A stretch of 64,000 bases of DNA from Coriobacteriia bacterium (GCA_025361335.1 JANYAK010000022.1:21737-85736), one strand, 5' to 3'; positions 21,905 through 52,531 are shown, numbered from the stretch's first letter. The notes: generated from the letters alone by a model not told the origin. A program made the numbers and translations.

Positions 21905-21924
21905 GGAAGCCGCCTTCCTGGACT

Positions 21925-24120
<2,196 letters not shown>

Positions 24121-31679: not shown

Positions 31680-33907
<2,228 letters not shown>

Positions 33908-34026: not shown

Positions 34027-35703
34027 ATGCCCAAACCGGCCGCTGTCATCACGCTGGGCGCCGTGGTTCTCGCGGTGGCAGCCACCGCCTGGCGACTGAG
34101 GTACGGCATCTCCTGGTACGACGAGGCTTGGTACGTTGCCATTCCTTATCGATTCGTGCTCGGCAGTCGGCCGTACATCGACGAAGTCAACGCCAACCAG
34201 TTCTTCGGGATACTGACATACCCCCTCGTCTGGCTCTGGGTGCAGCTGACCGGCTCCACCGACTCGATCGTCCTCTTCATGCGGTTCATGTGGCTTGCCT
34301 TCATGAGCGGCGTGGCACTTCTCGCCTTTCGTCTTCAGTCGAAGGTGGTGGAACCCGGGCTCGCGCTCGCCTGTGCAGCGGTCTACGTGGTCGCGATCCC
34401 GTTCACGATCCCCGGCATCAGCTACAACACGGCGGGTTCGGGCCTGCTGACCGCCGGATGCTGCCTGCTGGGTCTCGGCCTCATCGCGAAGACCCCTTCA
34501 TTCAGGACCGTACTCATAGCCGGCCTGCTCCATGGGCTGGCGATACTCGCGTATCCCCCTCTTGCCGCGGCGGCCTTGGTTTCCACTGGGCTCCTTGCAT
34601 GGATCTGGGGGCTAAGATCACGTCACCTTCGCGCATACGCTCTTGGTTGGGTAGCTGTGGTCGCGATCGCCGCCGTCCTTCTATTTGCGCTGGTTGGCTC
34701 AGAAAAGCTTCTCGCCGACCTGAGTGTCTCCAGGCTGGGCCCGTTCGGCGGAGGCGTCGCCAAGCTTAGGAGCATCGCGGAGACGGCCTGGGGCGTCGGC
34801 CGCCGCAGCTTGTTGGCCGGGGGATCGATCCTGGCAGCGACACTGGCACTTTGGAACCGGATCCCCAGAGCGCGACTGCTGCTGCTGGCTCTGCCCATCG
34901 TGGCGCTGGTTCCACTCCTGTCTTCGCCGACGACCGCCGTGCTCCTATGGATACCTCTGTTCGGGTCCTTGTCCTTGTTCGTGCTTCTGCGGCTGCGCCC
35001 TGGCGAACCCCTCCTCAGGGCGGTCAAGGTGCTTGTGCCCACGTCGGTCGTCGGCGGCATCGCGACCGCATATACGAGCACGAATGGAGCTATGAACGCG
35101 GGCTTCGGGATGTCGCCGCTCCTGCTGATCGCGGTACCGCTCGTTCTTCTGGCTGCGGCACCCCGTGAAGCGCGAGACACCGCGTACGTGTCGACCGCAC
35201 TGGCGCTCGCTGCTGCCCTAGTAGTCGGGATGTTCGTTGCGACCAGCTACCTGGACTCGTACCCCTCGTTCGACCAAGTGCTCCCGCTGCAGATGCATCG
35301 CTCGCCTGAGACTGGCCCGTGGGCACACGTGATGGGCTCACCCGAACAGGTCGATCTGGTCGACTCTGCGTACCGCGACACTCGTCAGTACGTTGGGTCC
35401 GGCGAGACCGTTCTCTACTACTACGACTTCCCGGCGGGGATCTTGATGGGCAAGTCCCCCGTGGCGTCGCCCATGGTCTGGGTCGGTTGGCACCCGGCCA
35501 TCAGTGAGGATGGAAAGCGGGCCTTCGGACAGCTCCTTGAGGACTACTACGCCCGAGAAGATGCACTTCCTGACGTCGTGTTCAGGACGAACCTTCTCGG
35601 ATGGTACAAAGCCGGGGATCCGATGTGGGACTTCACAGAGCGCCACCACTACACGCTCGTCGCCCATCGGGCGAGGTACGACGTCTTCGTGCGAGGAGAC
35701 TGA
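34027..35703 (+). CDS. Polytopic membrane protein, GT-C-like (ArnT/PMT-like architecture), function unknown
   Basis: At least 10 TM segments. Acidic loop right after TM1 (GISWYDEAWYVAIPY). C-terminal soluble tail. Third-position G+C is visibly lower than in neighbours (hand counts of 60-78% on two ~40-codon samples against ~89% in rmlA). Confidence 0.7.
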   Translation: MPKPAAVITLGAVVLAVAATAWRLRYGISWYDEAWYVAIPYRFVLGSRPYIDEVNANQFFGILTYPLVWLWVQLTGSTDSIVLFMRFMWLAFMSGVALLAFRLQSKVVEPGLALACAAVYVVAIPFTIPGISYNTAGSGLLTAGCCLLGLGLIAKTPSFRTVLIAGLLHGLAILAYPPLAAAALVSTGLLAWIWGLRSRHLRAYALGWVAVVAIAAVLLFALVGSEKLLADLSVSRLGPFGGGVAKLRSIAETAWGVGRRSLLAGGSILAATLALWNRIPRARLLLLALPIVALVPLLSSPTTAVLLWIPLFGSLSLFVLLRLRPGEPLLRAVKVLVPTSVVGGIATAYTSTNGAMNAGFGMSPLLLIAVPLVLLAAAPREARDTAYVSTALALAAALVVGMFVATSYLDSYPSFDQVLPLQMHRSPETGPWAHVMGSPEQVDLVDSAYRDTRQYVGSGETVLYYYDFPAGILMGKSPVASPMVWVGWHPAISEDGKRAFGQLLEDYYAREDALPDVVFRTNLLGWYKAGDPMWDFTERHHYTLVAHRARYDVFVRGD

Positions 35704-35733
35704 GCGACGCGCGTCTGCCCCGCCTTGGCCTCT

Positions 35734-36683
35734 TCAGTGCTCGAGCAGGGTGGCGAGACCTTCGTGCAGCGAGACCTGGGGGCTCCAGCCGAGGACCTCG
35801 CCCGCCACAGCCAGCAATCCCCCGTCTCGACCGAAGCGGCGTCCGGTGGCCACGGCTCCCCCGTGAGGACCGTCCCAGAGCCGCGCAGTTCGACGACAAG
35901 ATCCGCCGCCGCCCTCAGCGAGGTACACGTACCGGAGCCGATGTTGAACGCGCGCCCCGCGGCGTCCGGGCACAGCGAGGCCGCCGCTGCGGCGCGCACG
36001 ACGTCGTCGACGTGCACGAAATCGCGTAGCTGCATGCCGTCCCCGTAGAGCCGGATGGGCTCACCCCGCCGCGCGAGATCGACGAACAGGTTCAGTATCC
36101 CGTAGCCGGCACGGGCCGGATCACCCGCAGCATGTGGCCCGTAGGGGTTCGGCAGACGCAGGACCACAGTCCGCATGCCGTGGGTGTGCGCGTACATCTC
36201 GTAGTACAGGGAGCAGAGCGCCTTGTGGCTGGCATACGGGCTCGTCGGGTGCAGCCGATGCTTTTCGTCGACCGGAAGGTACTCGGGCGCACCGTACTCG
36301 AGACGCGATCCCGCGAACACGACAGACGCGGCGGGCGCCAGCTCCCGCACGGCCTCGAGAAGCAGGAGCTGAGCGCGCGCGCTCGTTTTCAGGTCGCCGA
36401 GGGGATCGCAGAGCGACCGAGTCGCCCCTAGACCGCCCGCGAAACAGAAGATGTGCTGCGCGCCGGTCACGACCGATCGGACCGCTTCGACGTCGGTGAT
36501 GTCGCCTCGCACGCCGACGACTTCGCCGGGCAGCTCGCATGCCGCGGCGTCGAACGCGACCACGTCGGCTCCCTCGCGAGCGAGGTACGCCACCACGTGG
36601 GACCCCATGAAGCCGCAGCCGCCGAAGACGATCGAGCGGGATCCGGCCAGTCCGGCGGCGAGTTCGCTCACTTCCTCGTGCAC
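35734..36683 (-). pseudogene. NAD-dependent sugar epimerase/dehydratase, interrupted by a 1-nt frameshift near 35819-35823
   Basis: The frame of ORF 35649..36683 gives IVFGGCGFMGSHV...SPYASHKAL...PWPPDAASVETGD. The canonical C-terminus LLAVAGEVLGWSPQVSLHEGLATLLEH* continues in the frame of ORF 35734..35973. The switch lies at a C5 (G5 on the coding strand) run. Confidence 0.65.
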
Positions 36684-36687: not shown

Positions 36688-37664
36688 CTAGCGGCCGATG
36701 GGATCGAAGTCCGTCGCCATGTTGTGCGTCTCGGCGACCAGATACAGAGGACGATGCTTCGTCTCGTAGAAGATGCGGGCCATGTACGAGCCGAGGAGCC
36801 CGATCGACATCAGCTGCACGCCGCCGAGGAACAGGACGATGACCACCGTGGACGTCCATCCCTGGATCAGCGTCTCCGGGTGCATGGCCTTGTCCACGAG
36901 GAGATACAGCCCGAACAGGAATCCGAAGAGCGTGACGACGGCGCCGAGACGCCCGGCGATGAGTAGCGGCTTGCTGGAGAAGCTCAGAATCCCGTCGTAG
37001 GCGAGGCGGAACAGCTTCTGCAGCGAGTAGTTGCCCTTGCCGGAGTGCCGAGGATCCCTGGCGTACGGAAGCGCGAACTGCTCGAACCCGACCCATGCAA
37101 CCATGCCGCGGACATAGCGGCTCTCCTCGCGCATGCTTCGAGGGCTTCTGCGGCCGCGCGATCGAGAAGGCGGAAGTCGCCGGTGTCGAGCGGCAGGGGC
37201 GTCTCGCTCAGCCATGACAGTGCGCGGTAGAACGAGGCGGCGGCGGCCCGCTTGAGGGGACCCTCCCCCTTGCGCTCCGTGCGCTTCCCGTAGACGACGC
37301 TGTAGCCCTCGCGCCACTTGGCGACCATTCCGGCGATGACCTCGGGCGGGTCCTGGAGGTCATCGTCGATCGTCACCACAGCGTCGCCACGAGCCGCATC
37401 GATCCCCGCGGAGATGGCGACCTGATGGCCGAAGTTGCGGGACAGCGAGATGACCTTGACCCGTTCGTCTCGCTGCGCCAGCTCCCTCAGGACGGACATC
37501 GCGCCGTCGGGGCTCGCATCGTTCACGAAGACGATCTCGTAGTCGAGCCGCTCCAGGCTCGAGAGCACCTCGGTGAGGCTCGCGTACGTGTGCGGCAGGA
37601 TGCTCTCGCTGCCGTAGACCGGTACGACGACCGACAGCAGCCGCTGGCTCTCCGCATGCGCCAT
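36688..37664 (-). pseudogene. GT2 polyprenyl-phosphate glycosyltransferase (GtrB/ArnC/DPM1-like), interrupted by a 1-nt frameshift near 37135-37150
   Basis: N-terminal part is ORF 36984..37664 (LSVVVPVYGSESIL...VFVNDASPDG...TIDDDLQDPPE...DTGDFRLLDRAAAEAL). It continues in the frame of ORF 36688..37317 (SMREESRYVRGMVAWVGF...GWTSTVVIVLFLGGVQLMSIGLLGSYMARIFYETKHRPLY). An intact paralogue lies at 57742..58689. Confidence 0.7.
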
Positions 37665-39897: not shown

Positions 39898-40881
39898 CTA
39901 GACGACGATCGGTCGCGTCACCTTGTTGGACTTCAGCGCGAGCGTGGTCAGTGTCGCCCCCGCCAGCGTGAACGCCCACCCGGCCGCGATCCAGACAGAG
40001 CCGGGAAGTCCGCCGGCCCTCGGAACGAGGGCCAGGAAGAGCTGGAGCCACAGGACGTGCGAGACATACACGCCGATCAGGTAGTCGCTTCCCCAAGCCA
40101 ACCGACCCACGCCGAGCCAAGTGACTCCCGATGCGGCACCCCACAGCAGGACGAACGCGCCGATCGACCAGAGGACGGTCTGCACTGTGATCGACAGCGG
40201 TCTCGTCAGGTCGCCGTAGAGAACGCCCACCGTCCCAGCGGCGAGCACCGACACGGGGAACGCCGCGCGCGCCAACAGGCCCGGGGGCCGCATCTCGCCC
40301 AACGCGCGCAGCTCCATCCCGCCCAGGTACACTGCGAACCACCGCGGCGCGAGGATGAAGTGCTGTACCGGACCGGTGTAGATCTCCCTGAGCGGTGCGA
40401 ACTGGTACAGCGCGAGCGTCAGCAGGATACAGGCCCCGATCGTGATTCTCCGCTGAATGCTGTTGTGCACGAGCAGCTCCGCGGCCACCGCGCAGTACAG
40501 CAGCAGCGGCAGCACCCACAGGATCTCGTTCGCTCCGGCGAAGAACACCACCCGGAATGCGTTGGGCAGGAACGGGGGACCGCCGATGAGCAGGTTGCGC
40601 TGCCCCCAAACGAGATACACGACGGTCCATGTGGCATAGGGAACGCCGAGCCTCACGAGCCGCTTGCGGAGCCACGCTGGTCCGCGGTCCCCCACGCCAC
40701 CATGCAGGTAGCCCGAGGCCGCGATGAAGAAGAACAGCGCCCACAAGGGTGCAGCAGTCATGAATGCGCCCAGACGGCCACCCGCGCCCGCCGAGACGTG
40801 GTGAAGCACGATCGCGGCGGCTGCGACGTACTTCAGACCGTCCAGAGTGACATTCCTCGGCGCAGCGGTCGCTTCCGGCAT
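39898..40881 (-). CDS. Acyltransferase family 3 (AT3) membrane O-acyltransferase
   Basis: LDGLKYVAAAAIVLHH N-terminal AT3-like signature and about 10 TM helices. Confidence 0.75.
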   Translation of the reverse strand: MPEATAAPRNVTLDGLKYVAAAAIVLHHVSAGAGGRLGAFMTAAPLWALFFFIAASGYLHGGVGDRGPAWLRKRLVRLGVPYATWTVVYLVWGQRNLLIGGPPFLPNAFRVVFFAGANEILWVLPLLLYCAVAAELLVHNSIQRRITIGACILLTLALYQFAPLREIYTGPVQHFILAPRWFAVYLGGMELRALGEMRPPGLLARAAFPVSVLAAGTVGVLYGDLTRPLSITVQTVLWSIGAFVLLWGAASGVTWLGVGRLAWGSDYLIGVYVSHVLWLQLFLALVPRAGGLPGSVWIAAGWAFTLAGATLTTLALKSNKVTRPIVV

Positions 40882-40897: not shown

Positions 40898-42706
40898 CTA
40901 CGCTCGAGGCTCGTCGTCGGAGAAGAGGCCCATGATCGCGTCCCTCTCCTCCTGCGGCAGGTAGGGATACTGGTCGTCTAGCGAGGGCGACTCGAACGTC
41001 CCGTCCTCGCGGCGCCGCGACACGATCTTCGGGCGCTTCTCCTGCGAGAATGAGACGTTCACCTCGCAGAGCCACGGGGCGTCGTCCTCCATGACGGCTG
41101 CCAACCCTTCGTCCAGGTCCGCATTCGTCTTGAACAGCCGATACCCGAGACCGTACGCCGCCGCGAGTGAGTCGAACCGCGGGTTGCTGACGCCCGATCC
41201 TGGGTGACACCCCACGAACCGTCCCCCGAAGAACGCCGTCTGCGTCGCTCGGATCGTCTCGTAGCCACCGTTGTTGAGCACGAAGATCTTCACGTTGAGT
41301 CGGTTGTGGCCGATCGTCAGGAGCTCCTGGATGTTGAGTTGCACGCTGCCGTCGCCGGTGACCACTACGGTGCGCGCCCCGTCCCGCGCGATGCACGCCC
41401 CGACCGCCGCCGGCAGGTCCCACCCCATCGCGCCGAAGCCGTAGTTCGTGATGACCCTTTGGCCGGGCTTCACCGCGAACGAATGGTGGATGGAAACCGC
41501 GTCCGAGCCGTTGCCGGTCAACACCACTTCTCCGGGTCCCATCGCCCTCGAGAGTTCTGCGGCCAGGACGTAGCTGTTCACGTGGTCCGCGTCTTCGAAG
41601 TAGTCGCTCGTCACGATCGGGTAGTCGCGTTTCCACCGGGTGACGGCATCGAGCCAGCGCTCGTCGAACGCGAAGCTTCTCCGTGGGACGTCCTCGACGA
41701 ACCGCTCCATGAACCACTTGACGTCGGCCAGAACCGCATGGTCCGCCACGAAGTGCGGCTTGCGCATCTCCTCGAGTTCGATGTTGACCATGACCCGCTT
41801 CGCCTTCGGGGCGAAGCCGCTGGTATCGAAGCCGACCGCGGTGACCGCCATGCTCGCGCCGAGGCACAGCAGGAGGTCCGCGTTCTGCAGGGTGAAGTTC
41901 GCTCTACGCTGGCCTGTGGGACCGAATCTGCCCAGGTAGAGGGGGTGCTCCTCGGGAAGTAGGTCCATCCCGCCCATCGTGGCCACGACAGGACAGCCGA
42001 CGTGCTCGACGAACGCCGTGAACGCCGCTTCCGCATGCCCGAGATGGATGCCGTCACCGCAGACGATCACCGGCCGTCTCGCATGCCGGAGGAGGTCGGC
42101 TACCTCGGCGATCCCTTCCGGGCGATCCAGCGCCGGATCGGGCTCCTGCGCGGGCGCGTCGGCTGCCGCGGCGGCGAGCGCTTCGTCGATGTCGCCGGCC
42201 TGCACGTCCAGGGGGATGTTCAGCCAGACGGGGCCCGGTCGCCCTGCCGTGGCGACGCGGATCGCGTGCGCCAGCTCGGCGGGGACGTCCTCGGAACGCA
42301 TCACGGTCTTCGCGTACTTCGTCACGGGCTGCCCCATGCTGACGATGTCGATCTCCTGGTGACCGGTCTGGCGATGCTTCGAGTAGTCCGCGATCAGGTC
42401 GGTGCGGACCTGACCCGAGATGACGAGCATCGGGACGGAATCCACCCAGGCGCCGGCTACCGCCGACAGCGCGTTCGTGCTTCCAGGACCGCTGGTGACG
42501 AGACACACACCTATGCCGCCCGTGACTCGGGCGTACGCCTCGGCGGCGATCGCGCAGGCCTGCTCGTGAGCATTGCACCAGTACTTGACGTCTGGGTGAC
42601 GCCCCAGCGCGTCCAGCAGGAACATGATGCCGCCGCCCGACACCGTGAAGACGTCCCGCACTCCGCGGGATGCGAGGTTCTCGATGACGTAGTCCGCAAC
42701 GATCAT
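40898..42706 (-). CDS. Thiamine-diphosphate enzyme, acetolactate-synthase large-subunit/YerE-like (paralogue 1)
   Basis: ORF trimmed to ATG 42706 (ATGA overlap with the upstream stop). NAHEQACAIAAEAYARVTG, SGPGSTNALSAVAGAWVDSVPMLVISGQV, and C-terminal ThDP fold GDGSVQLNIQEL. Confidence 0.85.
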   Translation of the reverse strand: MIVADYVIENLASRGVRDVFTVSGGGIMFLLDALGRHPDVKYWCNAHEQACAIAAEAYARVTGGIGVCLVTSGPGSTNALSAVAGAWVDSVPMLVISGQVRTDLIADYSKHRQTGHQEIDIVSMGQPVTKYAKTVMRSEDVPAELAHAIRVATAGRPGPVWLNIPLDVQAGDIDEALAAAAADAPAQEPDPALDRPEGIAEVADLLRHARRPVIVCGDGIHLGHAEAAFTAFVEHVGCPVVATMGGMDLLPEEHPLYLGRFGPTGQRRANFTLQNADLLLCLGASMAVTAVGFDTSGFAPKAKRVMVNIELEEMRKPHFVADHAVLADVKWFMERFVEDVPRRSFAFDERWLDAVTRWKRDYPIVTSDYFEDADHVNSYVLAAELSRAMGPGEVVLTGNGSDAVSIHHSFAVKPGQRVITNYGFGAMGWDLPAAVGACIARDGARTVVVTGDGSVQLNIQELLTIGHNRLNVKIFVLNNGGYETIRATQTAFFGGRFVGCHPGSGVSNPRFDSLAAAYGLGYRLFKTNADLDEGLAAVMEDDAPWLCEVNVSFSQEKRPKIVSRRREDGTFESPSLDDQYPYLPQEERDAIMGLFSDDEPRA

Positions 42707-43788
42707 TCCGGTGGCTTCCTCTCGGCCGAGGCAGTCATGGTACGCCATGCGGCGGTCCGACGGATGCCGTCCTCGAGCGTGACCGCCGCGGCCAGCCCCA
42801 ACTCCTCGGCGGCCCGCGACGTGTCAGGGACGTATCGCTGAGGCAGGACTCCCGATGTAGGCCTCTGTGCGACGTCCACCCGCAATGCGGGGTCGATGAC
42901 GCGGCCCACGGTCTCAGCCAGATCGAGGATGCTGACCTCCTTGTCGGAGCCGACGTTGTAGGGGCGAGCCGGCGCGCCACGCAGGAGCACCGTCCAGAGC
43001 CACCACGCGAGATCGGCAGCGTACAGGTAGGAGCGCATCGGCGTCCCGTCGCCCGTGATCCGGATCGTCTCGCCGGCCATCGCGTCCCGAATGAAGTTGC
43101 CGACCGCATACCCGGCGTCCATCGGCAGGTGCGGCCCCACGAAGGCGAACAGACGCGCGATCTTCGTCTCGAGTCCACTCTCCTGGTGGGCGGCGCAGCA
43201 CAGGAACTCCGCGGCCCGCTTGCCGTGAGCGTAGGCCGCCGTGGCGTCCTGAGGCGGCGGAGCCATGGGCAGGTCCTCGGAAACGCGGGCGCACTCCGCC
43301 GGCTGCCTGCCGTAGACGGCTCCGGAGCTCGTGTACAGGACGCTCCTCACGCCGCGGGACGTCGCGAAGTCCAGAACGCGGCGGGTCCCCTCGACCGCCG
43401 TGTCGAACTCGAGCGACGGCTTGTGAGCGGACGCCTCGGTGTTCGTCTCCGTGGCCATGTGGAGCACGTGCGTGAAGGGGCCTTCCGGGAAGCGGAACGA
43501 CCGGATATCGCCCTCCAGCAGGGTGACGACGCCCTCCCGCGCGAGGTGCGGCGCTCGCGCTGCCGCCCGGGCGGGATCGCGTGAGAGCACGACTGCCTCC
43601 ACCCCGAGGTCCAGCGCGTCGTTTGCCCACACGAGACTCTCGAGGACCCAGCCACCCACGAACCCCGTGCCGCCCGTGATGAAGAGACGGCATCCGCGCA
43701 GGTCGTCCCAAAGGCCCCGGCCGCGCTCCAGAACGTTGTCCAAGTCCGCAGCGAGGGGATTCGAGCGCCTGTCCGCCGCGTCACCCAT
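42703..43788 (-). CDS. NAD-dependent epimerase/dehydratase (extended SDR)
   Basis: ORF trimmed to ATG 43788. LFITGGTGFVGGWV Rossmann, AAYAHGKRAAE (YxxxK). Confidence 0.8.
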   Translation of the reverse strand: MGDAADRRSNPLAADLDNVLERGRGLWDDLRGCRLFITGGTGFVGGWVLESLVWANDALDLGVEAVVLSRDPARAAARAPHLAREGVVTLLEGDIRSFRFPEGPFTHVLHMATETNTEASAHKPSLEFDTAVEGTRRVLDFATSRGVRSVLYTSSGAVYGRQPAECARVSEDLPMAPPPQDATAAYAHGKRAAEFLCCAAHQESGLETKIARLFAFVGPHLPMDAGYAVGNFIRDAMAGETIRITGDGTPMRSYLYAADLAWWLWTVLLRGAPARPYNVGSDKEVSILDLAETVGRVIDPALRVDVAQRPTSGVLPQRYVPDTSRAAEELGLAAAVTLEDGIRRTAAWRTMTASAERKPPE

Positions 43789-44779
43789 CCGACGCCACCT
43801 CCTCGACCGCTCGCCCATCGAACAGAAGACGGAGCACCTCACACCCCTCGTCGAGAGTCGGAAGACGGACTCCCGAGGTGGCGGCCCCGGCGGTCTCGGC
43901 GAAGAACGACTCGAGCTCGCGCACGTAGGTCGCTTCGGTGTCGAACAGGACGGGATCGGCGATGTCCGGACCGCCGCCCTCTCCCGTCAGCGCAAAGGTG
44001 CCAGCGGCGATGTCGCACTCGAGCACCGCTGTCGTTCCCACGATACGGATCCTGCGTCGCGTCTTCTTCTCCAGGTAGTCCATGTGCACGGTGCAGGTGA
44101 ACCCGTTCGTGAAGGAGTAGACGGCGTCGAACACGTCCGGTGCCGCGATGGGCAGGGCGCCCGTGTGCGCGGTGCGCGTGCACCACTCGATCGGCTGCCC
44201 GAAGAGCATGCGCATGTAGTCGACCTCGTGGGAGAGATCGAGCGCCACGCCTCCGCCTCGATCCGAGGAGGCGCTGTACATGTCCTCGAGCGGACGGTCC
44301 GGGCGCCAGTCGGGGAGCCACTGGCCGACTTCGATCCGGGCGAACAGCGGCGTCCCGAGCGTCCCCGCCGCGAGAACGTCGGCGACCCGGCTCAAGACCG
44401 GGAGGAAGCGCAGGTTGTAGGCGACCCGCGCTACGAGCCCGGCCTCGCGGACCTCGGCGAGCAGGAGCGACAGGTCGCTCGTGAGGGCCGGGGCCACGGG
44501 CTTCTCGATCAGCACGTGTGCACCGGCCGCGACGAGTTCGCGGGTCGTGCCGACGTGCTTGGAGGTGTCGTTCGCCACGACGGCCACGTCCGGAGGATCG
44601 GCGGGGAGGGTGGCGATCGGGTGGACTCGCGGGTCCTCGAACGCGTCCACGGTCGAGACGTCCCGGGTCGTCCACAGCAGGACTTCCGAGACTCCGAGTG
44701 CCAGGAGGTTGCGGGTGTGCCGCTGAGCGATGGAACCGCTTCCGGCGACCGTCACGCGCTCCGGGACCTGCGACCTCAT
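43781..44779 (-). CDS. Gfo/Idh/MocA-family oxidoreductase
   Basis: N-terminal VTVAGSGSIAQRHTRNL Rossmann, LIEKPVA motif, and a C-terminal alpha/beta domain. ATGA overlap with the SDR stop. Confidence 0.8.
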   Translation of the reverse strand: MRSQVPERVTVAGSGSIAQRHTRNLLALGVSEVLLWTTRDVSTVDAFEDPRVHPIATLPADPPDVAVVANDTSKHVGTTRELVAAGAHVLIEKPVAPALTSDLSLLLAEVREAGLVARVAYNLRFLPVLSRVADVLAAGTLGTPLFARIEVGQWLPDWRPDRPLEDMYSASSDRGGGVALDLSHEVDYMRMLFGQPIEWCTRTAHTGALPIAAPDVFDAVYSFTNGFTCTVHMDYLEKKTRRRIRIVGTTAVLECDIAAGTFALTGEGGGPDIADPVLFDTEATYVRELESFFAETAGAATSGVRLPTLDEGCEVLRLLFDGRAVEEVASDG

Positions 44780-45540
44780 CGCGCCGACCAGCCGCCGTCG
44801 ACGATGAGGTTGTGGCCTGTCACGTAGGCGCCGGCGTCGCAGGCGAGGAAGACGACCGCACCCACGATGTCCCGCGGTTGGGCCATGCGCCCAAGGGGCG
44901 TGAGCGCCTCGTACCTCTGCCTGAACGAGTCCGGCTGGCGGTCCTCGACTCCCCCCGGCGAGACGCAGTTGCAGCGCACACCCGCGGGGCCGAAGTACGT
45001 GGCGAGCAGGCGCGTGATGCTGACGATGCCGCCCTTGATGGCCGCGTACGCGCTCGGCATCGTCATGTCCGTGCCTTCGTACACCTCGTAGCTCGGGCCC
45101 ACGACACCGTAGATCGAGGCCAGGTTGACGATCGAGCCGCCTCCGGAGGCGCTCATGAGGCGCGCGGCCGCACGAGATGTGGCGAAGTAGCCGCCCAGAT
45201 GACTATCTACATTGGCGAGCCAGGACGCGTACTCCTCGCTCTCGAGCGGCGCGCCCCAATCGGCCGTACGCGGGTAGGCGCAGTTGACGAGGATGTCGAG
45301 CCGACCGGCTCGCGTCACGACCTGGTCGAGCGCCCGGACCACGGACTCCTCGGAACTCACATCGAGGACCACGCTGGGATCCAGCCCCTCGAGTCCCGAC
45401 ACGTCCGCAGCCCATACCTCCGCTCCCGCCGCGGCCAGGCCCGCGCAGATCTCGCGGCCAAGCAGCCCGGCCGCCCCCGTCACGACGGCGACTCGGCCGG
45501 CGCACGAGAAGAGCGTGTCGTAGGACTCGGACGCGGTCAT
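44776..45540 (-). CDS. Short-chain dehydrogenase/reductase (classical SDR)
   Basis: VAVVTGAAGLLG (TGxxxGxG), NLASIYG, SAYAAIKGG (YxxxK). ATGA overlap with the neuC stop. Confidence 0.85.
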   Translation of the reverse strand: MTASESYDTLFSCAGRVAVVTGAAGLLGREICAGLAAAGAEVWAADVSGLEGLDPSVVLDVSSEESVVRALDQVVTRAGRLDILVNCAYPRTADWGAPLESEEYASWLANVDSHLGGYFATSRAAARLMSASGGGSIVNLASIYGVVGPSYEVYEGTDMTMPSAYAAIKGGIVSITRLLATYFGPAGVRCNCVSPGGVEDRQPDSFRQRYEALTPLGRMAQPRDIVGAVVFLACDAGAYVTGHNLIVDGGWSAR

Positions 45541-46736
45541 CTATGACTCCCCTCTGCCGGCGCGGCGCCGGCGGGCTCCTCGAATTGGAGGTCGACGAAA
45601 GTCGCGCGCCTCGCGCGCAACAGCAGGTCTTCGTCGGCCAGGAAGTCGGCGATGTGCTCCGCGGTGTGCCCTTCGCCGTACGGGTTGAGCGCGACCTTCG
45701 AGAAGGCCCGGTGCTCGGGCGAGGTCGCGTGGCGAACGGCAGCCACGATGGCTGTCGCGTCGGCACCCGCGTGCACGACGCTCGGCGGCCGCTCGCGGCC
45801 TTCCTGCCGAGTCCCGACATCAACGCTCGGCACGCCCAGCACGGGCACCTCGTGGAGCCCGCTCGACGAGTTGCCCACGACTGCCGCGGCGTTGCGCGCG
45901 GCCGACAGGTAGCCGCGACTACCGAGCGACGAAACCAGGGCAGCTCGACCTGGATGGTCCTGGATCCAGCGCTCGAGACTCGATGCGACGGCTTCGCCGC
46001 CCGCGTCGTCGTTCGGCGCGGTGAACAGCACCTTGAACTCCGTGAGCTCATCCAGCGCGCGCATCAGCACGTCCAGTTCGTGTGCCGAGTCCCCGCGCGT
46101 CACGGGGTGGAACGTGACGAGGAGGGTGTCCGAGTCGCACGCGACCCCGAACTCCTTCAAGAACTCGTCCGGGCCCATGAGCGGAGTGCCGGCGACGTTG
46201 TCGACCGCGAGCGCGCCGACGTTGAACACCGTCCACGCGGGCGCGCCCATCTGCACGATGCGTCTGCGGTAGGTTTCCGCCACGGGGAAGTGCAGCGTCG
46301 CCATCTTCGTGATCGCATGTCGCAGCGGGTCGTCGACCGCCCCCGCGGTGACCTCGCCGCCGTGGATGTGTGCCACCGGGACGTCGAGCAGGACGGCGGC
46401 TCCGGCCGCGGCGAACGTCTCGAACCTGTCACCCAGAAGAACCACGACGTCGGCCCCTGAGCGGTCGATGGCGTCAGCCAGCAGCGTGAGCGCCGCGCCG
46501 GCTCGGCCAGCCATCTGGAGCCGATCGCCACCGCCCGCGGGGAGCTCTACCCGGGCGAAGATCGGCAGCGCATCGGCTTCGATCTCGTCCACGGTGCTGT
46601 GCTCCGCGGCGAGGTGCGAGCCCGTCACGATGAGCCGCAACTCGAACCGCGGATCCCCGTCGAGCTTCACGAGGAGCGGATGCAGAAGACCGTAGTCTGC
46701 CCGACTCGTGGTCACGACTGCGGCCCGGACGGTCAC
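45537..46736 (-). CDS. neuC: Hydrolysing UDP/GDP-N-acetylhexosamine 2-epimerase (NeuC/LegG type)
   Basis: GTG 46736 (GTGA overlap with the neuB stop). AAVVTTSRADYGLLHPL, VVLLGDRFE, VAHIHGGEVT, GNSSSGLHE. Confidence 0.85.
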   Translation of the reverse strand: MTVRAAVVTTSRADYGLLHPLLVKLDGDPRFELRLIVTGSHLAAEHSTVDEIEADALPIFARVELPAGGGDRLQMAGRAGAALTLLADAIDRSGADVVVLLGDRFETFAAAGAAVLLDVPVAHIHGGEVTAGAVDDPLRHAITKMATLHFPVAETYRRRIVQMGAPAWTVFNVGALAVDNVAGTPLMGPDEFLKEFGVACDSDTLLVTFHPVTRGDSAHELDVLMRALDELTEFKVLFTAPNDDAGGEAVASSLERWIQDHPGRAALVSSLGSRGYLSAARNAAAVVGNSSSGLHEVPVLGVPSVDVGTRQEGRERPPSVVHAGADATAIVAAVRHATSPEHRAFSKVALNPYGEGHTAEHIADFLADEDLLLRARRATFVDLQFEEPAGAAPAEGSHR

Positions 46737-47734
46737 AGTTCGATCATCTCGTCCGGCGCGAACCGGCGGCGAGCCGGTGTGCCCAGCACGGAGTCCCACA
46801 GCATGGGGCTGAGTCCGAGCCCGGGCCGCTTCGTGGTGATGTTGGCCTCCGCGAGGACTTCACCGGCCTGTATCTCGCGCGACGCCACGATGCTCTTCCG
46901 GACCACGCCGACGTTTCGTTCCTCCGAGGGTGTCCGACGCTTGTGGCCCTCGCCCAGGGCCCGCGACACGTTCCTCGTCGCGGAGACCAGCGCCGATAGC
47001 TCCGCGGGCTCTATGCTCGCGGCGTGATCGGGACCGGGGAGACTCCTGTCCAGCGTGAAGTGCTTCTCGATGACCACAGCCCCCAAAGCGACGGCGGCGA
47101 TCGAGACCTCGATGCCTCGCGTGTGGTCCGAGTATCCGACCCGCAGGCCGAACGCGGACTCCATCTCGGCCATGGCGCGCAGATCGACCTCGTCCATCGG
47201 CGCCGGGTACTCGGTGGTGCAATGCAGAAGGACCACGTTCCCGCGCGCCAGGCCGGACTCCTCGAGCGCTTCCAGCGCGGCGCCGATCTCGTCGAGCGTC
47301 GCCATCCCGGTCGAGAGCAGCACGCTGTCCGCGTGCCGCGCCACCGCGCGCAGGACGGGAAGATCAGTGATCTCCCCCGAAGCGACCTTGAACTCGCGGA
47401 CACCCAGTCTCGCGAGCATCTCGACGCTCTCCACGTCGAACGCCGACGAGAGGAATCGGACGCCGCGCTGCTCGCACCGCTCCATCAACTTCGCGTGCGC
47501 CTGCTCGTCCAATCGCAGCGACGCCAGCATCTCCAGCTGGCTTCCCGGGCCCGTGCTTCGCGCCTGGTAGTCCGCTTTTCCCGCGTTCTCCGCAACCAGC
47601 AGGGCTGGATCGAAGGTCTGGAACTTCACGGCGTCAGCGCCGGCTTCCGCAGCCACGTCCACCATCAGGAGGGCGCGCTCGAGCGATCCGTTGTGGTTCA
47701 CGCCGGCCTCGGCGATGATCCTCGGTCCGCTCAC
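46733..47734 (-). CDS. neuB: Nonulosonic acid synthase (NeuB/LegI type)
   Basis: GTG 47734 (GTGA overlap with the upstream stop). IIAEAGVNHNGSLERALLMVDVAAEAGADAVKFQTF, GYSDHTRG, and a C-terminal SAF-like domain (RKSIVASREIQAGEVL). Confidence 0.9.
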   Translation of the reverse strand: MSGPRIIAEAGVNHNGSLERALLMVDVAAEAGADAVKFQTFDPALLVAENAGKADYQARSTGPGSQLEMLASLRLDEQAHAKLMERCEQRGVRFLSSAFDVESVEMLARLGVREFKVASGEITDLPVLRAVARHADSVLLSTGMATLDEIGAALEALEESGLARGNVVLLHCTTEYPAPMDEVDLRAMAEMESAFGLRVGYSDHTRGIEVSIAAVALGAVVIEKHFTLDRSLPGPDHAASIEPAELSALVSATRNVSRALGEGHKRRTPSEERNVGVVRKSIVASREIQAGEVLAEANITTKRPGLGLSPMLWDSVLGTPARRRFAPDEMIEL

Positions 47735-48795
47735 CTGATCCCCAGACGGTCGAGCGCGTTCTGAAGCTCCTCGAGTTGTCCCACGTCCAGCCAAGCGCGC
47801 TCGGGGATCGGGTAGACGCCGACGTGGCGCCCCGACTCCAGGGCTCGCCTGATCAGGTCCGTGGCGTCGGTGGGACCGTCAGTGCCGATGCCCTTGAGTA
47901 CCTCGGGTTCCATCACATAGATCCCGGTCGACACCAGCAGGTCGAAGCGGGGCTTCTCCTGGAGAGCGTCGAGCGTTCCGCCATCTCCGAGTTGACACAC
48001 CCCGTACGGCAAGACGAGGTGCTTCATCGAGGCGACGATGGTGATCACGCTCTCGGTTTCGCGATGATGGTCGATGACGTCGGCGAACTCGATGTCGACG
48101 ATGGTGTCGCAGTTGGCCAGGATGAACGTCTGGTCGAGCGCGGAGGCCATGAGCGATAGGCTCCCGGCCGTGCCGAGCGGTCTGTCCTCGTCGAAGAACG
48201 TTATCTCGTACGGCAGAGACTCGTCGCTGAAGTAGGCGCGGATGAGGCTCGCCTTGAAGTTCAGCGATACGAGGAAATTCGTGCATCCCTGCTCGTAGAA
48301 GCGGTCCATGATCAACTGCAGGACGGGCTGGTCGCCGACGGGCATCAGGGGTTTGGGCAGGATCCGCGTGAACGGCTCGAGCCGCGTTCCCTGGCCGCCC
48401 GCCATGATCGCCACCGGGACGCCCGCTGGACGACGGGGGACGACCGGTCCACCGAAGACGTCGGCCCACCACGCGGCATCGACGACCTTGCGGTCACCGT
48501 CGAGGACCGGCATGCAGTGGACCTGCCGAGAGAGCAGTTCCGCCCGCAGGCGTTCCTCGGAGACGCCCTGCTCGACCCAAGCGGGCTCCACGTTCATCGC
48601 CTGGGTGATGGGATCGTCCAGTCCCCTACCCGCGAGGATGTATCGGCGGACGTCGCCGTCGGTGAGCACCCCCAGGAGCAGGCCGTCGTCGCCGGCCACG
48701 AAGAGGATCTTCCCAGCGGTCTCATCGAGGACGCGCAGGGCCTCGACTATCGTCGTGACTGGGGAGACGAGAATCGCCGACAGGTCTGGATGCAC
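47731..48795 (-). CDS. CBS-pair + sugar-1-phosphate nucleotidyltransferase (PtmE-like)
   Basis: N-terminal tandem CBS-like region (ILFVAGDDGLLLGVLTDGDVRR, MPVLDGDRKVV) followed by IMAGGQGTRLEPFTRILPKPLMPV. GTG start. Confidence 0.85.
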   Translation of the reverse strand: MHPDLSAILVSPVTTIVEALRVLDETAGKILFVAGDDGLLLGVLTDGDVRRYILAGRGLDDPITQAMNVEPAWVEQGVSEERLRAELLSRQVHCMPVLDGDRKVVDAAWWADVFGGPVVPRRPAGVPVAIMAGGQGTRLEPFTRILPKPLMPVGDQPVLQLIMDRFYEQGCTNFLVSLNFKASLIRAYFSDESLPYEITFFDEDRPLGTAGSLSLMASALDQTFILANCDTIVDIEFADVIDHHRETESVITIVASMKHLVLPYGVCQLGDGGTLDALQEKPRFDLLVSTGIYVMEPEVLKGIGTDGPTDATDLIRRALESGRHVGVYPIPERAWLDVGQLEELQNALDRLGIR

Positions 48796-48798: not shown

Positions 48799-49986
48799 TC
48801 ATCTCCTGGCCAAGGATCGGATCGCGCCGACGACGCGATCGACGTCATCGGGTCGCAGACTGCTGCTGCACGGCAGGTTCAGCACCCGCTCCCAGTACCA
48901 TACCGCACGTTCGGGGCCGACCACAGTGCACCCTGCGTACGGTGGCTGCATGTGGATGGGCAGCCACAAGGGACGGGTCTGGATCCCCGCCTCCGCGAGA
49001 CGGGTCATGAGGCTCTCGCGATCCATCCCGAACTCGGCCGGCTCTACCAGCACGGAATAGAACCAGCAGTTGGGGTCGGTGCCGCCGGGAGGCCCGACGA
49101 ACGTCAGACCGGGGACCCCCGCGAGACCCTCCGAGTACCGTGCGCGGTTCCGGCGCTTCGTCTCGATGAACCCCTGCAGCTGCTCCATCTGGGCGACGCC
49201 GATGGCGGCGGTGACGTTGCTCATCGCGTAGTTGAACCCGACTGCGCCGTGCACGTACCTGACCGGGTCGTCCTTGGCCTGGTGGAACAGATAGCGGGCC
49301 CTCCAAGCGACGTCGTCGTCGTCCGTGACGAGCATGCCGCCGCCGCCCGTCGTGATGATCTTGTTGCCGTTGAACGAGAGAGCACCCGAGAGCCCTAGGG
49401 TCCCGGTCGCGCGCCCGGCCAGGGAGCCCACGGTGTACGTCGATCCGATGCTCTCCGTCGCGTCCTCCACCACGGCCAGCTCGTGGCGTCGCGCGATCGC
49501 GAGCAGGCGCTCCATGTCGCACGGATCGCCGAACACGTGCACGGGCATCATGGCCTTCACCAAGCGCCCCGTCGCAGTGTCGACGACTCGCCGTGACGAC
49601 GCGTCCCAAGCGCGTTCGAGATAGTCCTCGAGCGCATCTGGGTCGAGGCCGAGACGGTCGTCGCAGCCGATGAGGACGGGCTCGGCGCCGCAGTAGCGGA
49701 CGGCGTTCGCGGAGGCGATGAACGTGACCGTCGGCACGATGACCGAGTCCCCGGGGCCGACGCCGGCGGTCAGGAGCGCGACGTGCAGGGCAGCCGTACC
49801 GCTTGCGCAGGCGACGGCATGGCGCGCCCCGGTCAGTTCGCAGACGGCTGCCTCGAACCGGCCGACATACTCCCCCGCGGCGGACAACCAACCGCTGCTG
49901 AGGCAGTCTTCCACGTACCGGCCCTCATTGCCGCCGACATTCGGGACGGACAAGGGCAGGAAGGGCGCTGGGACCGGATCAGACAT
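48799..49986 (-). CDS. legC: DegT/DnrJ/EryC1-family PLP aminotransferase (LegC-like)
   Basis: LPLSVPNVGGNEGRYVEDCL, CASGTAALHVAL, and PLP-lysine context ALSFNGNKIITTGGGGML. Confidence 0.8.
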   Translation of the reverse strand: MSDPVPAPFLPLSVPNVGGNEGRYVEDCLSSGWLSAAGEYVGRFEAAVCELTGARHAVACASGTAALHVALLTAGVGPGDSVIVPTVTFIASANAVRYCGAEPVLIGCDDRLGLDPDALEDYLERAWDASSRRVVDTATGRLVKAMMPVHVFGDPCDMERLLAIARRHELAVVEDATESIGSTYTVGSLAGRATGTLGLSGALSFNGNKIITTGGGGMLVTDDDDVAWRARYLFHQAKDDPVRYVHGAVGFNYAMSNVTAAIGVAQMEQLQGFIETKRRNRARYSEGLAGVPGLTFVGPPGGTDPNCWFYSVLVEPAEFGMDRESLMTRLAEAGIQTRPLWLPIHMQPPYAGCTVVGPERAVWYWERVLNLPCSSSLRPDDVDRVVGAIRSLARR

Positions 49987-50983
49987 TGAAGATCTCCCAC
50001 TTGTACCGTGCGAGATTGGCGGGGTCGCGGAACCACGCCACCGTCCGCTCCAGCCCCTCTCTCAGATCGACCGTGGGGGCCCACCCGGTCAGCGAGCCGA
50101 TCAGCGAGTTGTCCGCGAGCAGCCTCTCGACCTCGCTCTTCTCCGGCCGGAGCCGCTCCTCGGCGCCGACGATCTCGGTACCGGGGCGGACCATCTCTAT
50201 CAGCATCGAGGCGAGCGCGCCGACGGATATCTCGCTCCCCGATCCTATGTTGACCTCCCTGCCGACCGCGGCATCGCATCCGGCCAGAGCGATGAGCCCG
50301 GCGCAGGTGTCCTCCACGTAGGTGAGGTCGCGCGTCGGGTGCAGCGACCCGAGATGGATCTCCGCGGCGTCGTTGAGGAGCTGGGTGACGATCGTCGGTA
50401 TCACGGCCCTCGCCGACTGCCGCGGCCCGTACGTGTTGAAGGGCCGCGCGGTGACGACGGGGAGATCGAAGGAGCGATGGAACGACTCCGCCATCTTGTC
50501 GGCGGAGATCTTCGACGCGGAGTACGGTGACTGCCCCTGAACGGGATGCGTCTCGTCGATCGGGACGTACTTCGCCGTTCCGTAGACCTCCGACGTCGAC
50601 GTGACCAACACCCGCTCGAGACCGAGGTCTCGAGCCGCCTGCAGGACGTTGAGCGTGCCCTTCACGTTCGTGTCGATGTAGGACTCGGGGGCGTTGTACG
50701 AATGTGGGATGCCGATCAGAGCGGCCAAGTGGAGCACGGCATCGACGCCTTCAAGGCTCTTCCGTACGAAGACGGAGTCCCGCACGTCACCCATGACGAC
50801 CTCGACCGCCGTCAGCGACTCGCGAGGGATCGTGTCGAGCCACCCCCACGTTCCGAACGAGTTGTAGTGGACGAACGCACGCACATCCGCGCCGCGCGAG
50901 AGGAGCGCCTCCACGAGGTGGCTGCCGATGAACCCGTCCGCACCGGTCACGGTGATCTTCTTGCCCTGCACTTCCACGCGCAC
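49979..50983 (-). CDS. legB: NAD-dependent hexosamine-nucleotide 4,6-dehydratase (LegB-like)
   Basis: ITVTGADGFIGSHL, HYNSFGTWGWLD, HLAALIGIPHSY, STSEVYGTAKYVPIDE, SPYSASKISAD, RPFNTYGPRQSARAVIPTI. This matches the LegB pattern as I remember it. Confidence 0.8.
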   Translation of the reverse strand: MRVEVQGKKITVTGADGFIGSHLVEALLSRGADVRAFVHYNSFGTWGWLDTIPRESLTAVEVVMGDVRDSVFVRKSLEGVDAVLHLAALIGIPHSYNAPESYIDTNVKGTLNVLQAARDLGLERVLVTSTSEVYGTAKYVPIDETHPVQGQSPYSASKISADKMAESFHRSFDLPVVTARPFNTYGPRQSARAVIPTIVTQLLNDAAEIHLGSLHPTRDLTYVEDTCAGLIALAGCDAAVGREVNIGSGSEISVGALASMLIEMVRPGTEIVGAEERLRPEKSEVERLLADNSLIGSLTGWAPTVDLREGLERTVAWFRDPANLARYKWEIFNV

Positions 50984-51028: not shown

Positions 51029-52531
51029 CTACCTGCTGTCCCGGTCCCAATCGTCCTCTATCCGGATAATGTCGTCTTCGCCAAGGTAGTCCCCCACCTG
51101 CACCTCGATCACCTGCAGGAGGGACTCGCCGCGGTTCTCGATGCGGTGCACGGCGCCCAGTGGGATGAAGGCACTCTCGTTGAGCGGCACCTCGGTGACC
51201 CGGTCGTCGCAGGTCACGACCGCCTTGCCCGCGACCACGATCCAGTGCTCGCTGCGGTGCTCATGCCTCTGCAGGCTGGGCTTGGACCCCGGCTTGATCT
51301 CGAGCAGCTTGATCTGGTAGCCGAGGCCCTTGAGCAGGCTCGTCCAACTGCCCCACGGCCGAAGGCTCACCTTCGGCTGGGTCACCTCGGGAGCGCCCAT
51401 CGCCCGCAGCGCGTCGACCACAAGCCTGACGTCCTGCGCCCGTTCCTTCGGCAGGACGAGCGTGGCGTCCGTCGTGTCGACCACGATGAGATCCTCGACC
51501 CCGAGCGTCGCCACCAGCCGGTCGGTCGAGTACACGATGCTGCCGCGGCTACCGATGTCGACGCCGCGGCCGGAACGGACGTTGCCCGCGGAGTCCGGGT
51601 CGGCCATCTCCTCGAGCGCGAGCAGGGATCCGACGTCGCTCCACTTGAGCGGCGCGGGGATGACGGCGACCCGATCCGAGCGCTCCATGATGGCCACGTC
51701 GACCGAGACGGGCGCGATGCCGGCGAAGGCCACACGCGCGTCCTCTCTGTTGCGGTCGGCGGGCGGGAGGGCCGCGATCCCTCTCACGACGTCGGCGATG
51801 TGCGCCAGCTCCCCGCCCGCGGAATCGAGCTCTTCGAGAACGCGCGCCGCCTTCATCACGAAGATCCCGGCGTTCCAGAAATGCACGCCGCCCGAGACAT
51901 ACTCCTCGGCGCGGGCGTGGTCGGGCTTCTCGACGAACTCGGCCGCGACGTGCGGGACGGCGAGACCCACAGCCGACCCCGGCAGGGGCTCCCCCGCGCG
52001 GATGTAGCCGTAGCCGGTCTCGGGCCGCGTGGGCTCGATACCGATGGTGACCAGCCAGCCGTCGGCAGCCACGGCCGCCGCGGCCGCGATGCAGTCCGCC
52101 CACAACCCGCCATCCTCCAAGAGGTGGTCCGATGGCAGGACAACCATGATGGCGTCGGGGTCATCGACGGCGAGCGTCGCTGCGGCCAGCGCGATCGCCG
52201 GGGCGGTGTTGCGCGCGAGAGGTTCCTGGATGTAGCGCACGCGATGGAGCTCGGGGTCCGGCTGCGCGGTGAGATGGTTGCGCAGCTCGTCGAAAAGGCG
52301 CTCGTTCGTCACGACGGTGATGGCGGAACCGCCATCCGTGAACGGCAGGATCCTGTGCACGGCCGCGGCGATGAGCGACTCCGTTCCGAACATCGAGAGC
52401 AGCTGCTTCGGGTTCAGCTCGCGCGACAGGGGCCAGAACCGCTGCCCGCTCCCGCCCGCGAGAACGACGGCCTTCAGTCCGGGGATGGAGCGAGGCACGG
52501 CTGCTCCTCGTGGGGTCGGTTTCGGGGGCAT
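51029..52531 (-). CDS. manC: Mannose-1-phosphate guanylyltransferase / mannose-6-phosphate isomerase (bifunctional type)
   Basis: AVVLAGGSGQRFWPLSR, PSDHL, GYGYI, and a C-terminal cupin RPWGSWTSL...KPGSKPSLQRHEHRSEHWIVVAG. Confidence 0.9.
   Translation of the reverse strand: MPPKPTPRGAAVPRSIPGLKAVVLAGGSGQRFWPLSRELNPKQLLSMFGTESLIAAAVHRILPFTDGGSAITVVTNERLFDELRNHLTAQPDPELHRVRYIQEPLARNTAPAIALAAATLAVDDPDAIMVVLPSDHLLEDGGLWADCIAAAAAVAADGWLVTIGIEPTRPETGYGYIRAGEPLPGSAVGLAVPHVAAEFVEKPDHARAEEYVSGGVHFWNAGIFVMKAARVLEELDSAGGELAHIADVVRGIAALPPADRNREDARVAFAGIAPVSVDVAIMERSDRVAVIPAPLKWSDVGSLLALEEMADPDSAGNVRSGRGVDIGSRGSIVYSTDRLVATLGVEDLIVVDTTDATLVLPKERAQDVRLVVDALRAMGAPEVTQPKVSLRPWGSWTSLLKGLGYQIKLLEIKPGSKPSLQRHEHRSEHWIVVAGKAVVTCDDRVTEVPLNESAFIPLGAVHRIENRGESLLQVIEVQVGDYLGEDDIIRIEDDWDRDSR

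Follow-up and report, generated by a model that had tools for sequence, protein, structure and literature searches.

The stretch analyzed here (the window, 64,000 nucleotides) comes from a Coriobacteriia bacterium (GCA_025361335.1 JANYAK010000022.1:21737-85736). At positions 40898-42706, on the minus strand, it carries a gene for a 602-amino acid thiamine diphosphate (ThDP)-dependent carboligase of the JanthE/YerE-like type, here called ThDP1. To judge from its alignments, ThDP1 is a member of a widespread, uncharacterized clade of JanthE-like enzymes, and it is very probably a sugar-branching carboligase rather than an acetohydroxyacid synthase (AHAS). Two features of this clade had been missed in the first-pass annotation of the window. 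Its members travel with the RfbF, RfbG and RfbH ketosugar genes as well as with the nonulosonate synthase NeuB, and the genomes that carry them generally lack a dedicated synthetase for cytidine monophosphate (CMP)-nonulosonates. We tentatively propose, giving it slightly less than an even chance, that in many bacterial phyla acids of the legionaminic (Leg) or pseudaminic (Pse) type are not activated with CMP but are joined through a C-C bond, by a JanthE-like enzyme, to C4 of a cytidine diphosphate (CDP)-linked 3,6-dideoxyhexose. The product would be a 14-carbon diamino sugar, and the genome studied here would in addition make a yersiniose-type C2-branched sugar, both drawn from one acceptor pool.

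The open reading frame (ORF) of ThDP1 is uninterrupted, and its product matches the Pfam domains TPP_enzyme_N, TPP_enzyme_M and TPP_enzyme_C at 125, 114 and 113 bits. The presumed start codon, ATG at 42706-42704, encodes the methionine at which family alignments begin. It shares the sequence ATGA with the TGA (42705-42703) of an upstream gene for an extended short-chain dehydrogenase/reductase (SDR), an overlap that had already been pointed out and that can be read directly from the coordinates. The stop codon is the TAG at 40900-40898, and the next gene begins with an ATG at 40881. The catalytic glutamate of the HEQ sequence (Glu48) and the GDG-X25-NN ThDP/Mg motif (GDG at residues 451-453, NN at 478-479) are present and are invariant across the family. 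ThDP1 belongs to the three-domain ThDP decarboxylase-type superfamily, which is pyruvate oxidase (POX)/AHAS-like.

Within this superfamily, ThDP1 was compared with the AHAS large-subunit model TIGR00118 (cut-off 538.35), on which it scored 359.9 bits and its paralog in the window, ThDP2, 466 bits; both values are under the cut-off. On another contig (C5), the genome (1.81 Mb, 92% complete) carries a true ilvB, which scores 841.9 bits on the same model. The sole IlvN of the genome (210.8 bits) is encoded directly after this ilvB, and no IlvN-type small subunit was found near ThDP1. Among solved structures, the best match of ThDP1 was JanthE (8RPH, 349 bits over residues 3-589), followed by E. 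coli AHAS I (267 bits) and PpYerE (251 bits). Because PpYerE scores only 251 bits, ThDP1 appears to be YerE-like by way of JanthE and not a member of the YerE clade proper. A tree of 107 sequences, with support from the SH-like approximate likelihood ratio test (SH-aLRT), gathered the 74 rows of the ThDP1 family in a single clade at 100%, the 20 rows of the YerE-type (ThDP2) family in a clade at 99%, and the 12 rows of housekeeping acetolactate synthases (ALS) in a clade at 100%. The ALS rows include the genome's own IlvB and named sequences from Bacillus, Serratia and Xenorhabdus. The ThDP2 family and AHAS fall together on the opposite side of the ThDP1 branch. The reference sequences of YpYerE, ErwE, MMAR_2332, MyGE, JanthE and SfmB stand outside this tree, whose clades were anchored by bit scores against PDB entries. 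The first-pass annotation had called for such a phylogeny and had favored a YerE-like sugar-modifying group over the housekeeping synthases; the score under the TIGR00118 cut-off, the location of the ilvB-ilvN pair elsewhere, the separate clade and the best match to JanthE all bear this out.

In the alignment, ThDP1 also departs from pyruvate-using enzymes at residues of the donor pocket. All 12 ALS rows and all 20 YerE-type rows have Phe at the position equivalent to F109 of E. coli AHAS II; none of the 74 ThDP1-family rows does, and 65 of them have Pro instead. In JanthE the equivalent residue, Val121, is a substrate-contact position in docking. The window's ThDP1 has His116 at this position (codon 42359-42361), the sole His found there in the family sample. 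The Val of the sequence DVGQxQMW, equivalent to V375 of AHAS II, is kept in every ALS and YerE-type row, is Asn in 59 of the 74 ThDP1-family rows, ThDP1 itself included, and is Met in JanthE. In AHAS II, F109 and V375 reportedly confer specificity for pyruvate as donor. Two further positions, which we take to serve acceptor recognition in AHAS, have also changed. The ThDP1 family has lost the Arg of RFDDR, presumably the residue that binds the carboxylate of the acceptor keto acid; ALS and YerE-type rows retain it. The family has likewise lost the Trp of QWE, a position that is Trp in ALS and Phe in YerE-type rows. ThDP1 has Thr at both.

A profile scan of species genomes yielded 80 loci with ThDP1 orthologs, 44-73% identical. 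These loci span Actinomycetota, Chloroflexota, Verrucomicrobiota, Acidobacteriota, Gemmatimonadota, Burkholderiales (Trinickia, Paraburkholderia, Caballeronia, Pandoraea and Janthinobacterium), the candidate phyla radiation (CPR) and others. The neighbors of ThDP1 were counted by unbiased clustering of all ORFs in the 80 loci. NeuB was found in 63 loci, the extended SDR in 60 (60-68 over the several counts made), an RfbH-like dehydrase in 54, a GtrB/ArnC-like glycosyltransferase of family 2 (GT2) in 51 and an RfbF-like nucleotidyltransferase in 49; 4,6-dehydratases were found in 28 and 20, PseB in 34 and LegB in 22. A narrower count took in the 52 loci in which ThDP1 has 8 kb or more on each side (the full-flank set); of these, 48 have NeuB, 38 have RfbH and 36 have both. 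This count supplies the survey of ThDP enzymes and NeuB that had been suggested at first pass. In the control loci the picture was different: RfbH was found in 9/9 YerE-type loci and NeuB in 0/9, and neither gene was found in any of 74 housekeeping ALS loci. The latter are 74 of the 80 loci of a second genome scan, whose search patterns also fit ordinary AHAS, and were reused as an outgroup. Since NeuB is absent from both control sets, its link is specific to the ThDP1 clade.

The arrangement of these genes is also informative. In 35 loci the extended SDR gene shares the strand of the ThDP gene and ends no further than 60 nucleotides from its start. RfbH is encoded in the ThDP1 operon itself in a Chthoniobacterales locus (L081), with the order RfbF-RfbG-RfbH-SDR-ThDP-PseB-PseC-PseH-PseI, and in the closest relative of the window (L083), where a single run of genes reads RfbG-RfbH-LegB-LegC-PtmE-NeuB-NeuC-SDR-Gfo-extSDR-ThDP1-AT3-AT3. 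The RfbH of the window shares 70% identity with the DegT gene that L083 has in its ThDP1 operon, and 54% with that of L081. No second sugar-type (YerE-type) ThDP enzyme was found in the genomes of three further loci, L001-L003, so that no candidate other than ThDP1 is left there to use what RfbH makes.

The window differs in this respect, for it encodes the second enzyme, ThDP2 (58790-60508, minus strand, 572 amino acids). The existence of this paralog had been recognized, but at an identity of roughly 40%; the alignment gives 34% over 563 residues. The best solved relative of ThDP2 is PpYerE (5AHK, 425 bits), so that by these matches ThDP1 is JanthE-like and ThDP2 is PpYerE-like and the two belong to different clades, a split that had escaped the first pass. 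Its view that two such enzymes in one locus are unusual holds: the three closest relatives searched carry the ThDP1 type only. The start of ThDP2 overlaps the stop of RfbH (TGATG), and the RfbH-ThDP2 pair is the classical yersiniose arrangement. No YerF-like SDR gene was found after ThDP2 (58786-60510), in contrast to two YerE-type loci (L179 and L181), in which an SDR of 313-319 amino acids is encoded between the ThDP enzyme and a GT2. The SDR beside ThDP1 may serve both ThDP enzymes, or the C2 branch may remain a ketone. ThDP1 and ThDP2 may draw on a single acceptor pool in competition, so that C8- and C2-branched sugars would both arise, or ThDP1 may act in some other way.

A second line of evidence concerns activation. 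LegB, LegC, LegG and LegI of the canonical CMP-legionaminic acid pathway are all present, each over its NCBIfam cut-off. As a marker for activation we used PF02348, the family of CMP-nonulosonate and CMP-Kdo synthetases. No match over the cut-off was found in the 92%-complete genome of the window, the best reaching 20.4 bits. Among 15 other genomes with ThDP1 loci, 13 had a single match of KdsB strength (in Gram-negatives) or weak matches. As a control, 300 genomes of the same phylum were sampled. NeuB was found in 33 of them, and 30 of the 33 also had PF02348, in most cases no more than a few kb away from NeuB. When only the NeuB genomes of this phylum without ThDP1 are considered, PF02348 was present in 30/32, or in 29/31 if genome G104 is left out. 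A single NeuB genome of the control (G145) has a true ThDP1 ortholog, which scores 642 bits and adjoins NeuB (C7:65237-68660), and this genome has no PF02348; it is a second case for the phylum, independent of the window. Another genome of the phylum, G109, which is 99% complete, has a strong NeuB match of 312 bits (G109:C57:4282-4998) and neither PF02348 nor a ThDP1 ortholog. To our knowledge, a nonulosonate that cannot be activated with CMP has no route into a glycan.

A gene for the N-acetylation step of the Leg pathway is also missing. No N-acetyltransferase of the LegH/PglD type was found in the window, and the best match in the genome, 25.7 bits, lies inside a 441-amino acid frame. A LegH-type acetyltransferase is present in 15 other Leg-type ThDP1 loci. 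The 7-amino group of the Leg-like acid produced here may be left free or may carry another acyl group.

A route that would connect these genes can be put forward. The Leg-type operon (LegB, LegC, LegG, LegI and helpers) would produce a free 5,7-diamino-tetradeoxy-nonulosonic acid, which in its open-chain form is a 4-hydroxy-2-oxo acid. ThDP1 would bind this acid as donor and decarboxylate it to the equivalent of a C8 acyl anion, which it would then add to the C4 keto group of a CDP-3,6-dideoxy-4-ketohexose. This acceptor would be made by RfbH (60508-61830) together with RfbF and RfbG, putative genes for which lie 1.8-3.6 kb past the 3' end of the window, intact and on the same strand; the single TGA of the RfbG-like gene is its terminal stop. 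The extended SDR, translationally coupled to ThDP1, would reduce the new branch ketone in the manner of YerF. The resulting CDP-linked 14-carbon branched sugar would be transferred to polyprenyl phosphate by a GtrB-like GT2 with GtrA and brought to the cell surface, where AT3 proteins may O-acylate it. We infer from gene context and alignment which compounds are donor and acceptor, in what order the steps run, what the SDR does and where the product goes. To the core of the scheme, namely a nonulosonate as the donor of ThDP1, CDP-3,6-dideoxy-4-ketohexose as the acceptor and reduction of the branch by the SDR, we give an even chance.

As the hexose part would keep the product activated with CDP, this scheme would account both for the missing CMP synthetase and for the recurrent GtrB-like GT2. 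The first-pass annotation had offered several roles for ThDP1, including C-branching or two-carbon extension of a keto intermediate and synthesis of an acyl substituent. The existence of two clades, the company of RfbF/G/H and NeuB, and the missing CMP synthetase lead us to favor a C-branched hexose with a nonulosonate as donor; lengthening by two carbons fits less well, as does an N-acyl group carried by the nonulosonate.

Several points weigh against this proposal. We know of no glycan that contains a C8-branched 3,6-dideoxyhexose. Nonulosonates in solution are mostly cyclic hemiketals, and the reaction would need the rare open-chain keto form. RfbH was not found inside 10 kb of ThDP1 in 14 of the 52 full-flank loci; in the window the two are 18 kb apart and RfbH is directly adjoined by ThDP2, which could consume the entire acceptor pool. 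Further PF02348 genes, apparently not beside the locus, are present in 2 of the 15 other ThDP1 genomes, and the absence of this family rests in part on incomplete metagenome-assembled genomes. Frameshifts in a GT2 and an epimerase gene (described below) may mean that the pathway is decaying here or that the assembly is wrong. On the ThDP1 tree, contexts of the Leg type and of the Pse type interleave, with 10-14 changes of label, and there is for this reason no visible specialization of ThDP1 to one nonulosonate. Finally, genomic association alone cannot separate donor from acceptor. The idea that subclades of ThDP1 track Leg or Pse context was rejected on the same 10-14 changes, a result that is neutral as to donor use.

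The interleaving would be expected of an enzyme that never meets a nonulosonate, and the most serious alternative is of this kind. ThDP1 would be an ordinary YerE-type enzyme that uses pyruvate to place a C2 acetyl branch on an NDP (nucleoside diphosphate)-3,6-dideoxy-4-ketohexose, the SDR would reduce this branch as happens for yersiniose A, and the nonulosonate operon would merely be co-located and contribute to the same glycan. The YerE-like family of ThDP1, the adjacent, putatively YerF-like SDR and the association with RfbF/G/H all agree with such a role, and pyruvate is among the donors that JanthE accepts. This explanation, however, does not account for NeuB in nearly all full-flank ThDP1 loci and in none of the YerE-type loci, nor does it explain how a nonulosonate could enter the glycan without a CMP-nonulosonate synthetase. 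The positions reported to be pyruvate-specific, which AHAS and the YerE type keep, are replaced in the ThDP1 family, and the genome already has a YerE-type enzyme, ThDP2, beside RfbH. We consider ordinary pyruvate transfer by ThDP1 unlikely, although it retains some weight.

Alternatively, ThDP1 might act on the nonulosonate pathway itself, which is essentially what had been suggested at first pass. It could add two carbons either to the 4-keto intermediate that LegB forms or to the nonulosonate at its C2 keto group, or it could decarboxylate the nonulosonate to a C8 aldehyde that the SDR would reduce. The translational coupling of ThDP1 to the end of the Leg-type operon is consistent with this, the lack of LegH in the genome suggests a non-canonical Leg route, and sfmABC of Shewanella, needed for flagellin modification, combines a NeuB-domain protein with a ThDP enzyme and an SDR. 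Such a role would nevertheless leave over the association with RfbF/G/H and the GtrB-like GT2. A branched nonulosonate would still need the CMP activation that is missing here, and an octose would need activation genes of its own, none of which is evident. Loss of the RFDDR Arg, with its presumed contact to the acceptor carboxylate, also argues against an alpha-keto acid as acceptor. On balance we regard action on the nonulosonate pathway as improbable. It is hardly credible that ThDP1 serves as a second acetolactate/acetohydroxyacid synthase, or as some other ThDP enzyme of central metabolism, and lies in a glycan locus by chance. A housekeeping AHAS identity was rejected, for although the top-scoring NCBIfam models are those of the AHAS large subunit and the relatives are publicly annotated as acetolactate synthases, all AHAS-model scores are far under their cut-offs, the true ilvB-ilvN pair is elsewhere, the tree sets ThDP1 apart, the residues of AHAS substrate recognition are replaced and the glycan-gene neighborhood is conserved across phyla.

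The window as a whole (G+C content about 68%) is one long cell-surface glycan locus, in which a tightly packed operon on the minus strand leads up to ThDP1. The genes described in this paragraph and the next are on this strand. The operon begins with LegB, a 4,6-dehydratase (49979-50983; TIGR04180, 480 bits, cut-off 475), followed by a LegC-family aminotransferase (48799-49986; TIGR04181, 432 bits, cut-off 420) and a PtmE-like protein with CBS and nucleotidyltransferase domains (47731-48795; Pfam CBS and NTP_transferase). Next are the NeuB/LegI-type nonulosonate synthase, the proposed maker of the alpha-keto-acid donor (46733-47794; TIGR03569, 450 bits, cut-off 400), and a hydrolyzing 2-epimerase of the NeuC/LegG type, which releases a free 6-deoxy-hexosamine (45537-46799; TIGR03568, 368 bits, cut-off 236). 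A PtmA-like classical SDR (44776-45540) matches adh_short_C2 and scores 142 bits on the PtmA model NF050062, under its cut-off. It is followed by a Gfo/Idh/MocA oxidoreductase (43781-44779; Pfam match), which is also found in about 20 Leg-type ThDP1 loci. The extended SDR (42703-43787, about 361 amino acids), proposed here as the YerF-like reductase of the branch ketone, matches the Epimerase and GDP_Man_Dehyd Pfam families. It most likely starts at 43787, with an ATG that overlaps the stop of Gfo, and not at 43842. Two genes for AT3 membrane acyltransferases follow ThDP1 on the same strand, as had been observed; both products match Acyl_transf_3 (PF01757), the first (39898-40881) at 68.6 bits and the second (38696 to about 39898, its start approximate) at 98.7 bits. 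An ortholog of the first is found after ThDP1 in actinobacterial relatives only (L002, L003, L004 and L083).

RfbH, the E1-type sugar 3-dehydrase that would make the NDP-3,6-dideoxy-4-ketohexose acceptor, scores 725 bits on NF011936 (cut-off 423). Beyond ThDP2 are a GtrB/ArnC-like GT2 (57742 to about 58700; PF00535), which clusters with the GT2 present in 51 ThDP1 loci, and a GtrA-like protein (57275 to about 57750; PF04138), the two together representing a polyprenyl-phosphate sugar route. A second GtrB-like GT2 (36721-37664), orthologous to the GT2 in the ThDP1 loci of relatives, was detected by tblastn with the L083 protein and is split over two frames: residues 1-161 are in frame -3 (37640-37158) and residues 172-307 in frame -2 (37128-36721). 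An adjacent epimerase gene (35649-36683) lacks the last 30 or so residues, near 35820, when compared with its intact L083 ortholog. The split GT2 is 76-79% and the epimerase 67% identical to the intact orthologs in L083; in relatives both genes come after ThDP1. The frameshifts, that of the GT2 falling near 37130-37158, reflect either gene decay or a homopolymer error in the assembly.

The window also has tandem paralogs of GDP-mannose 4,6-dehydratase (20939-23142, minus strand; 439 and 351 bits on the gmd model), ManC (51029-52531), an Fcl-like synthase (32657-33841) and RmlA/B/D (15002-18288), and since these are present the locus presumably makes several 6-deoxy sugars besides the branched ones. 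Five proteins of 558-657 amino acids without a Pfam match (25094-26980, 52614-54485, 54454-56427 and, on the plus strand, 34027-35703 and 62017-63885) are candidates for GT-C-type transferases that would move polyprenyl-phosphate-linked sugars to the final acceptor.

If the proposed use of a nonulosonate as the donor of ThDP1 is correct, nonulosonic acids of the Leg or Pse type would have a second, undescribed fate across many bacterial phyla. Predictions of 'sialic-acid-like' surface sugars from genomes would then be wrong for a whole class of loci, as NeuB together with a ThDP1-type enzyme and no CMP synthetase would not signify a nonulosonate-capped glycan. The product would be a chemically undescribed, very large branched surface sugar, and a new class of monosaccharide would be predicted for bacteria of soil and fresh water, cultured Trinickia and Paraburkholderia strains among them. 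The chemistry of acyl-branched sugars would be extended from the C4-C8 keto acids made by aldolases to the C9 amino sugar acids made by a phosphoenolpyruvate (PEP)-dependent synthase. A natural reaction would also be named for biocatalysts of the JanthE type, which are being engineered to make tertiary alcohols.

The closest solved relative of ThDP1, JanthE of Janthinobacterium sp. HH01 (PDB 8RPH, 8RPI and 8RPJ), is a YerE-like ThDP lyase that works with long alpha-keto acids on the donor side and ketones on the acceptor side, and for which no physiological substrate is known. It resembles ThDP1 over the full length of the alignment, including a C-terminal tail with a conserved Pro-Lys (the K567 region of JanthE), and in having a residue other than Phe at the position equivalent to AHAS II F109. 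It differs in its ThDP motif, which is CDG in JanthE and the canonical GDG in ThDP1. Because ThDP1 orthologs match one another far more strongly (700-1160 bits, against 349 bits between ThDP1 and JanthE), we regard JanthE as a relative and not as an established ortholog. The biosynthetic AHAS enzymes (IlvB, IlvG and IlvI) resemble ThDP1 in their three-domain fold and in having the catalytic Glu and the GDG...NN motif; ThDP1 differs from them in its score under the family cut-off, its lack of an IlvN partner, its separate clade and the replacement of the residues for donor and acceptor specificity.

In the searchable literature we found no paper that ties YerE-type enzymes to NeuB or to nonulosonates, in keeping with the earlier statement that ThDP enzymes are not part of any described nonulosonate pathway. 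The sole precedent is genetic. In Shewanella oneidensis, deletion of sfmB (SO_3262, annotated 'ilvB') from the sfmABCDE operon abolishes normal flagellin modification and motility (PMC3765264). By its description, this operon is similar to the ThDP1 locus in encoding a NeuB-domain protein (sfmA), a ThDP enzyme of 581 amino acids (sfmB) and a PtmA-like SDR (sfmC), but its context is that of flagellin.

The pathway to yersiniose A in Yersinia pseudotuberculosis uses DdhA/B, E1/E3, YerE and YerF, with YerE taking pyruvate to form a C2 branch. The route proposed for ThDP1 would share with it a CDP-3,6-dideoxy-4-ketohexose acceptor, ThDP-dependent branching at C4 and a subsequent reduction of the branch with NAD(P)H. 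ThDP1 differs in belonging to another clade, in its altered donor pocket and in the company of NeuB; the YerE-type enzyme of the window is ThDP2. Nearer in chemistry are the acyl-branched sugars, represented by erwiniose (ErwE/ErwF/ErwI/ErwJ), caryophyllose (MMAR_2332) and gastriose (MyGE) (Steitz et al. 2022, PMC9306805). The donors there are 4-hydroxy-2-oxo acids of C4-C8 made by aldolases, as demonstrated for ErwE and MMAR_2332 and suggested for MyGE, and in the unifying scheme decarboxylation of the keto acid on ThDP leads to its addition to CDP-3,6-dideoxy-4-ketoglucose, after which a YerF-like enzyme reduces the branch ketone (PMC9306805). Judged by its description, this pathway would resemble the ThDP1 system in its dedicated maker of the keto acid, its YerE-like ThDP enzyme and its YerF-like reductase. 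The dedicated keto-acid maker encoded with ThDP1 would be NeuB, present in all but four of the full-flank loci, and not a pyruvate aldolase, if the donor is as we propose; a PEP-dependent synthase, a C9 diamino acid and a C8 branch would then stand in place of the aldolase and its C4-C8 acids. By this analogy, the ThDP1 system is most fittingly described as a form of the known acyl-branched-sugar pathway that is fed by NeuB, in which NeuB and the Leg or Pse genes would replace the aldolase.

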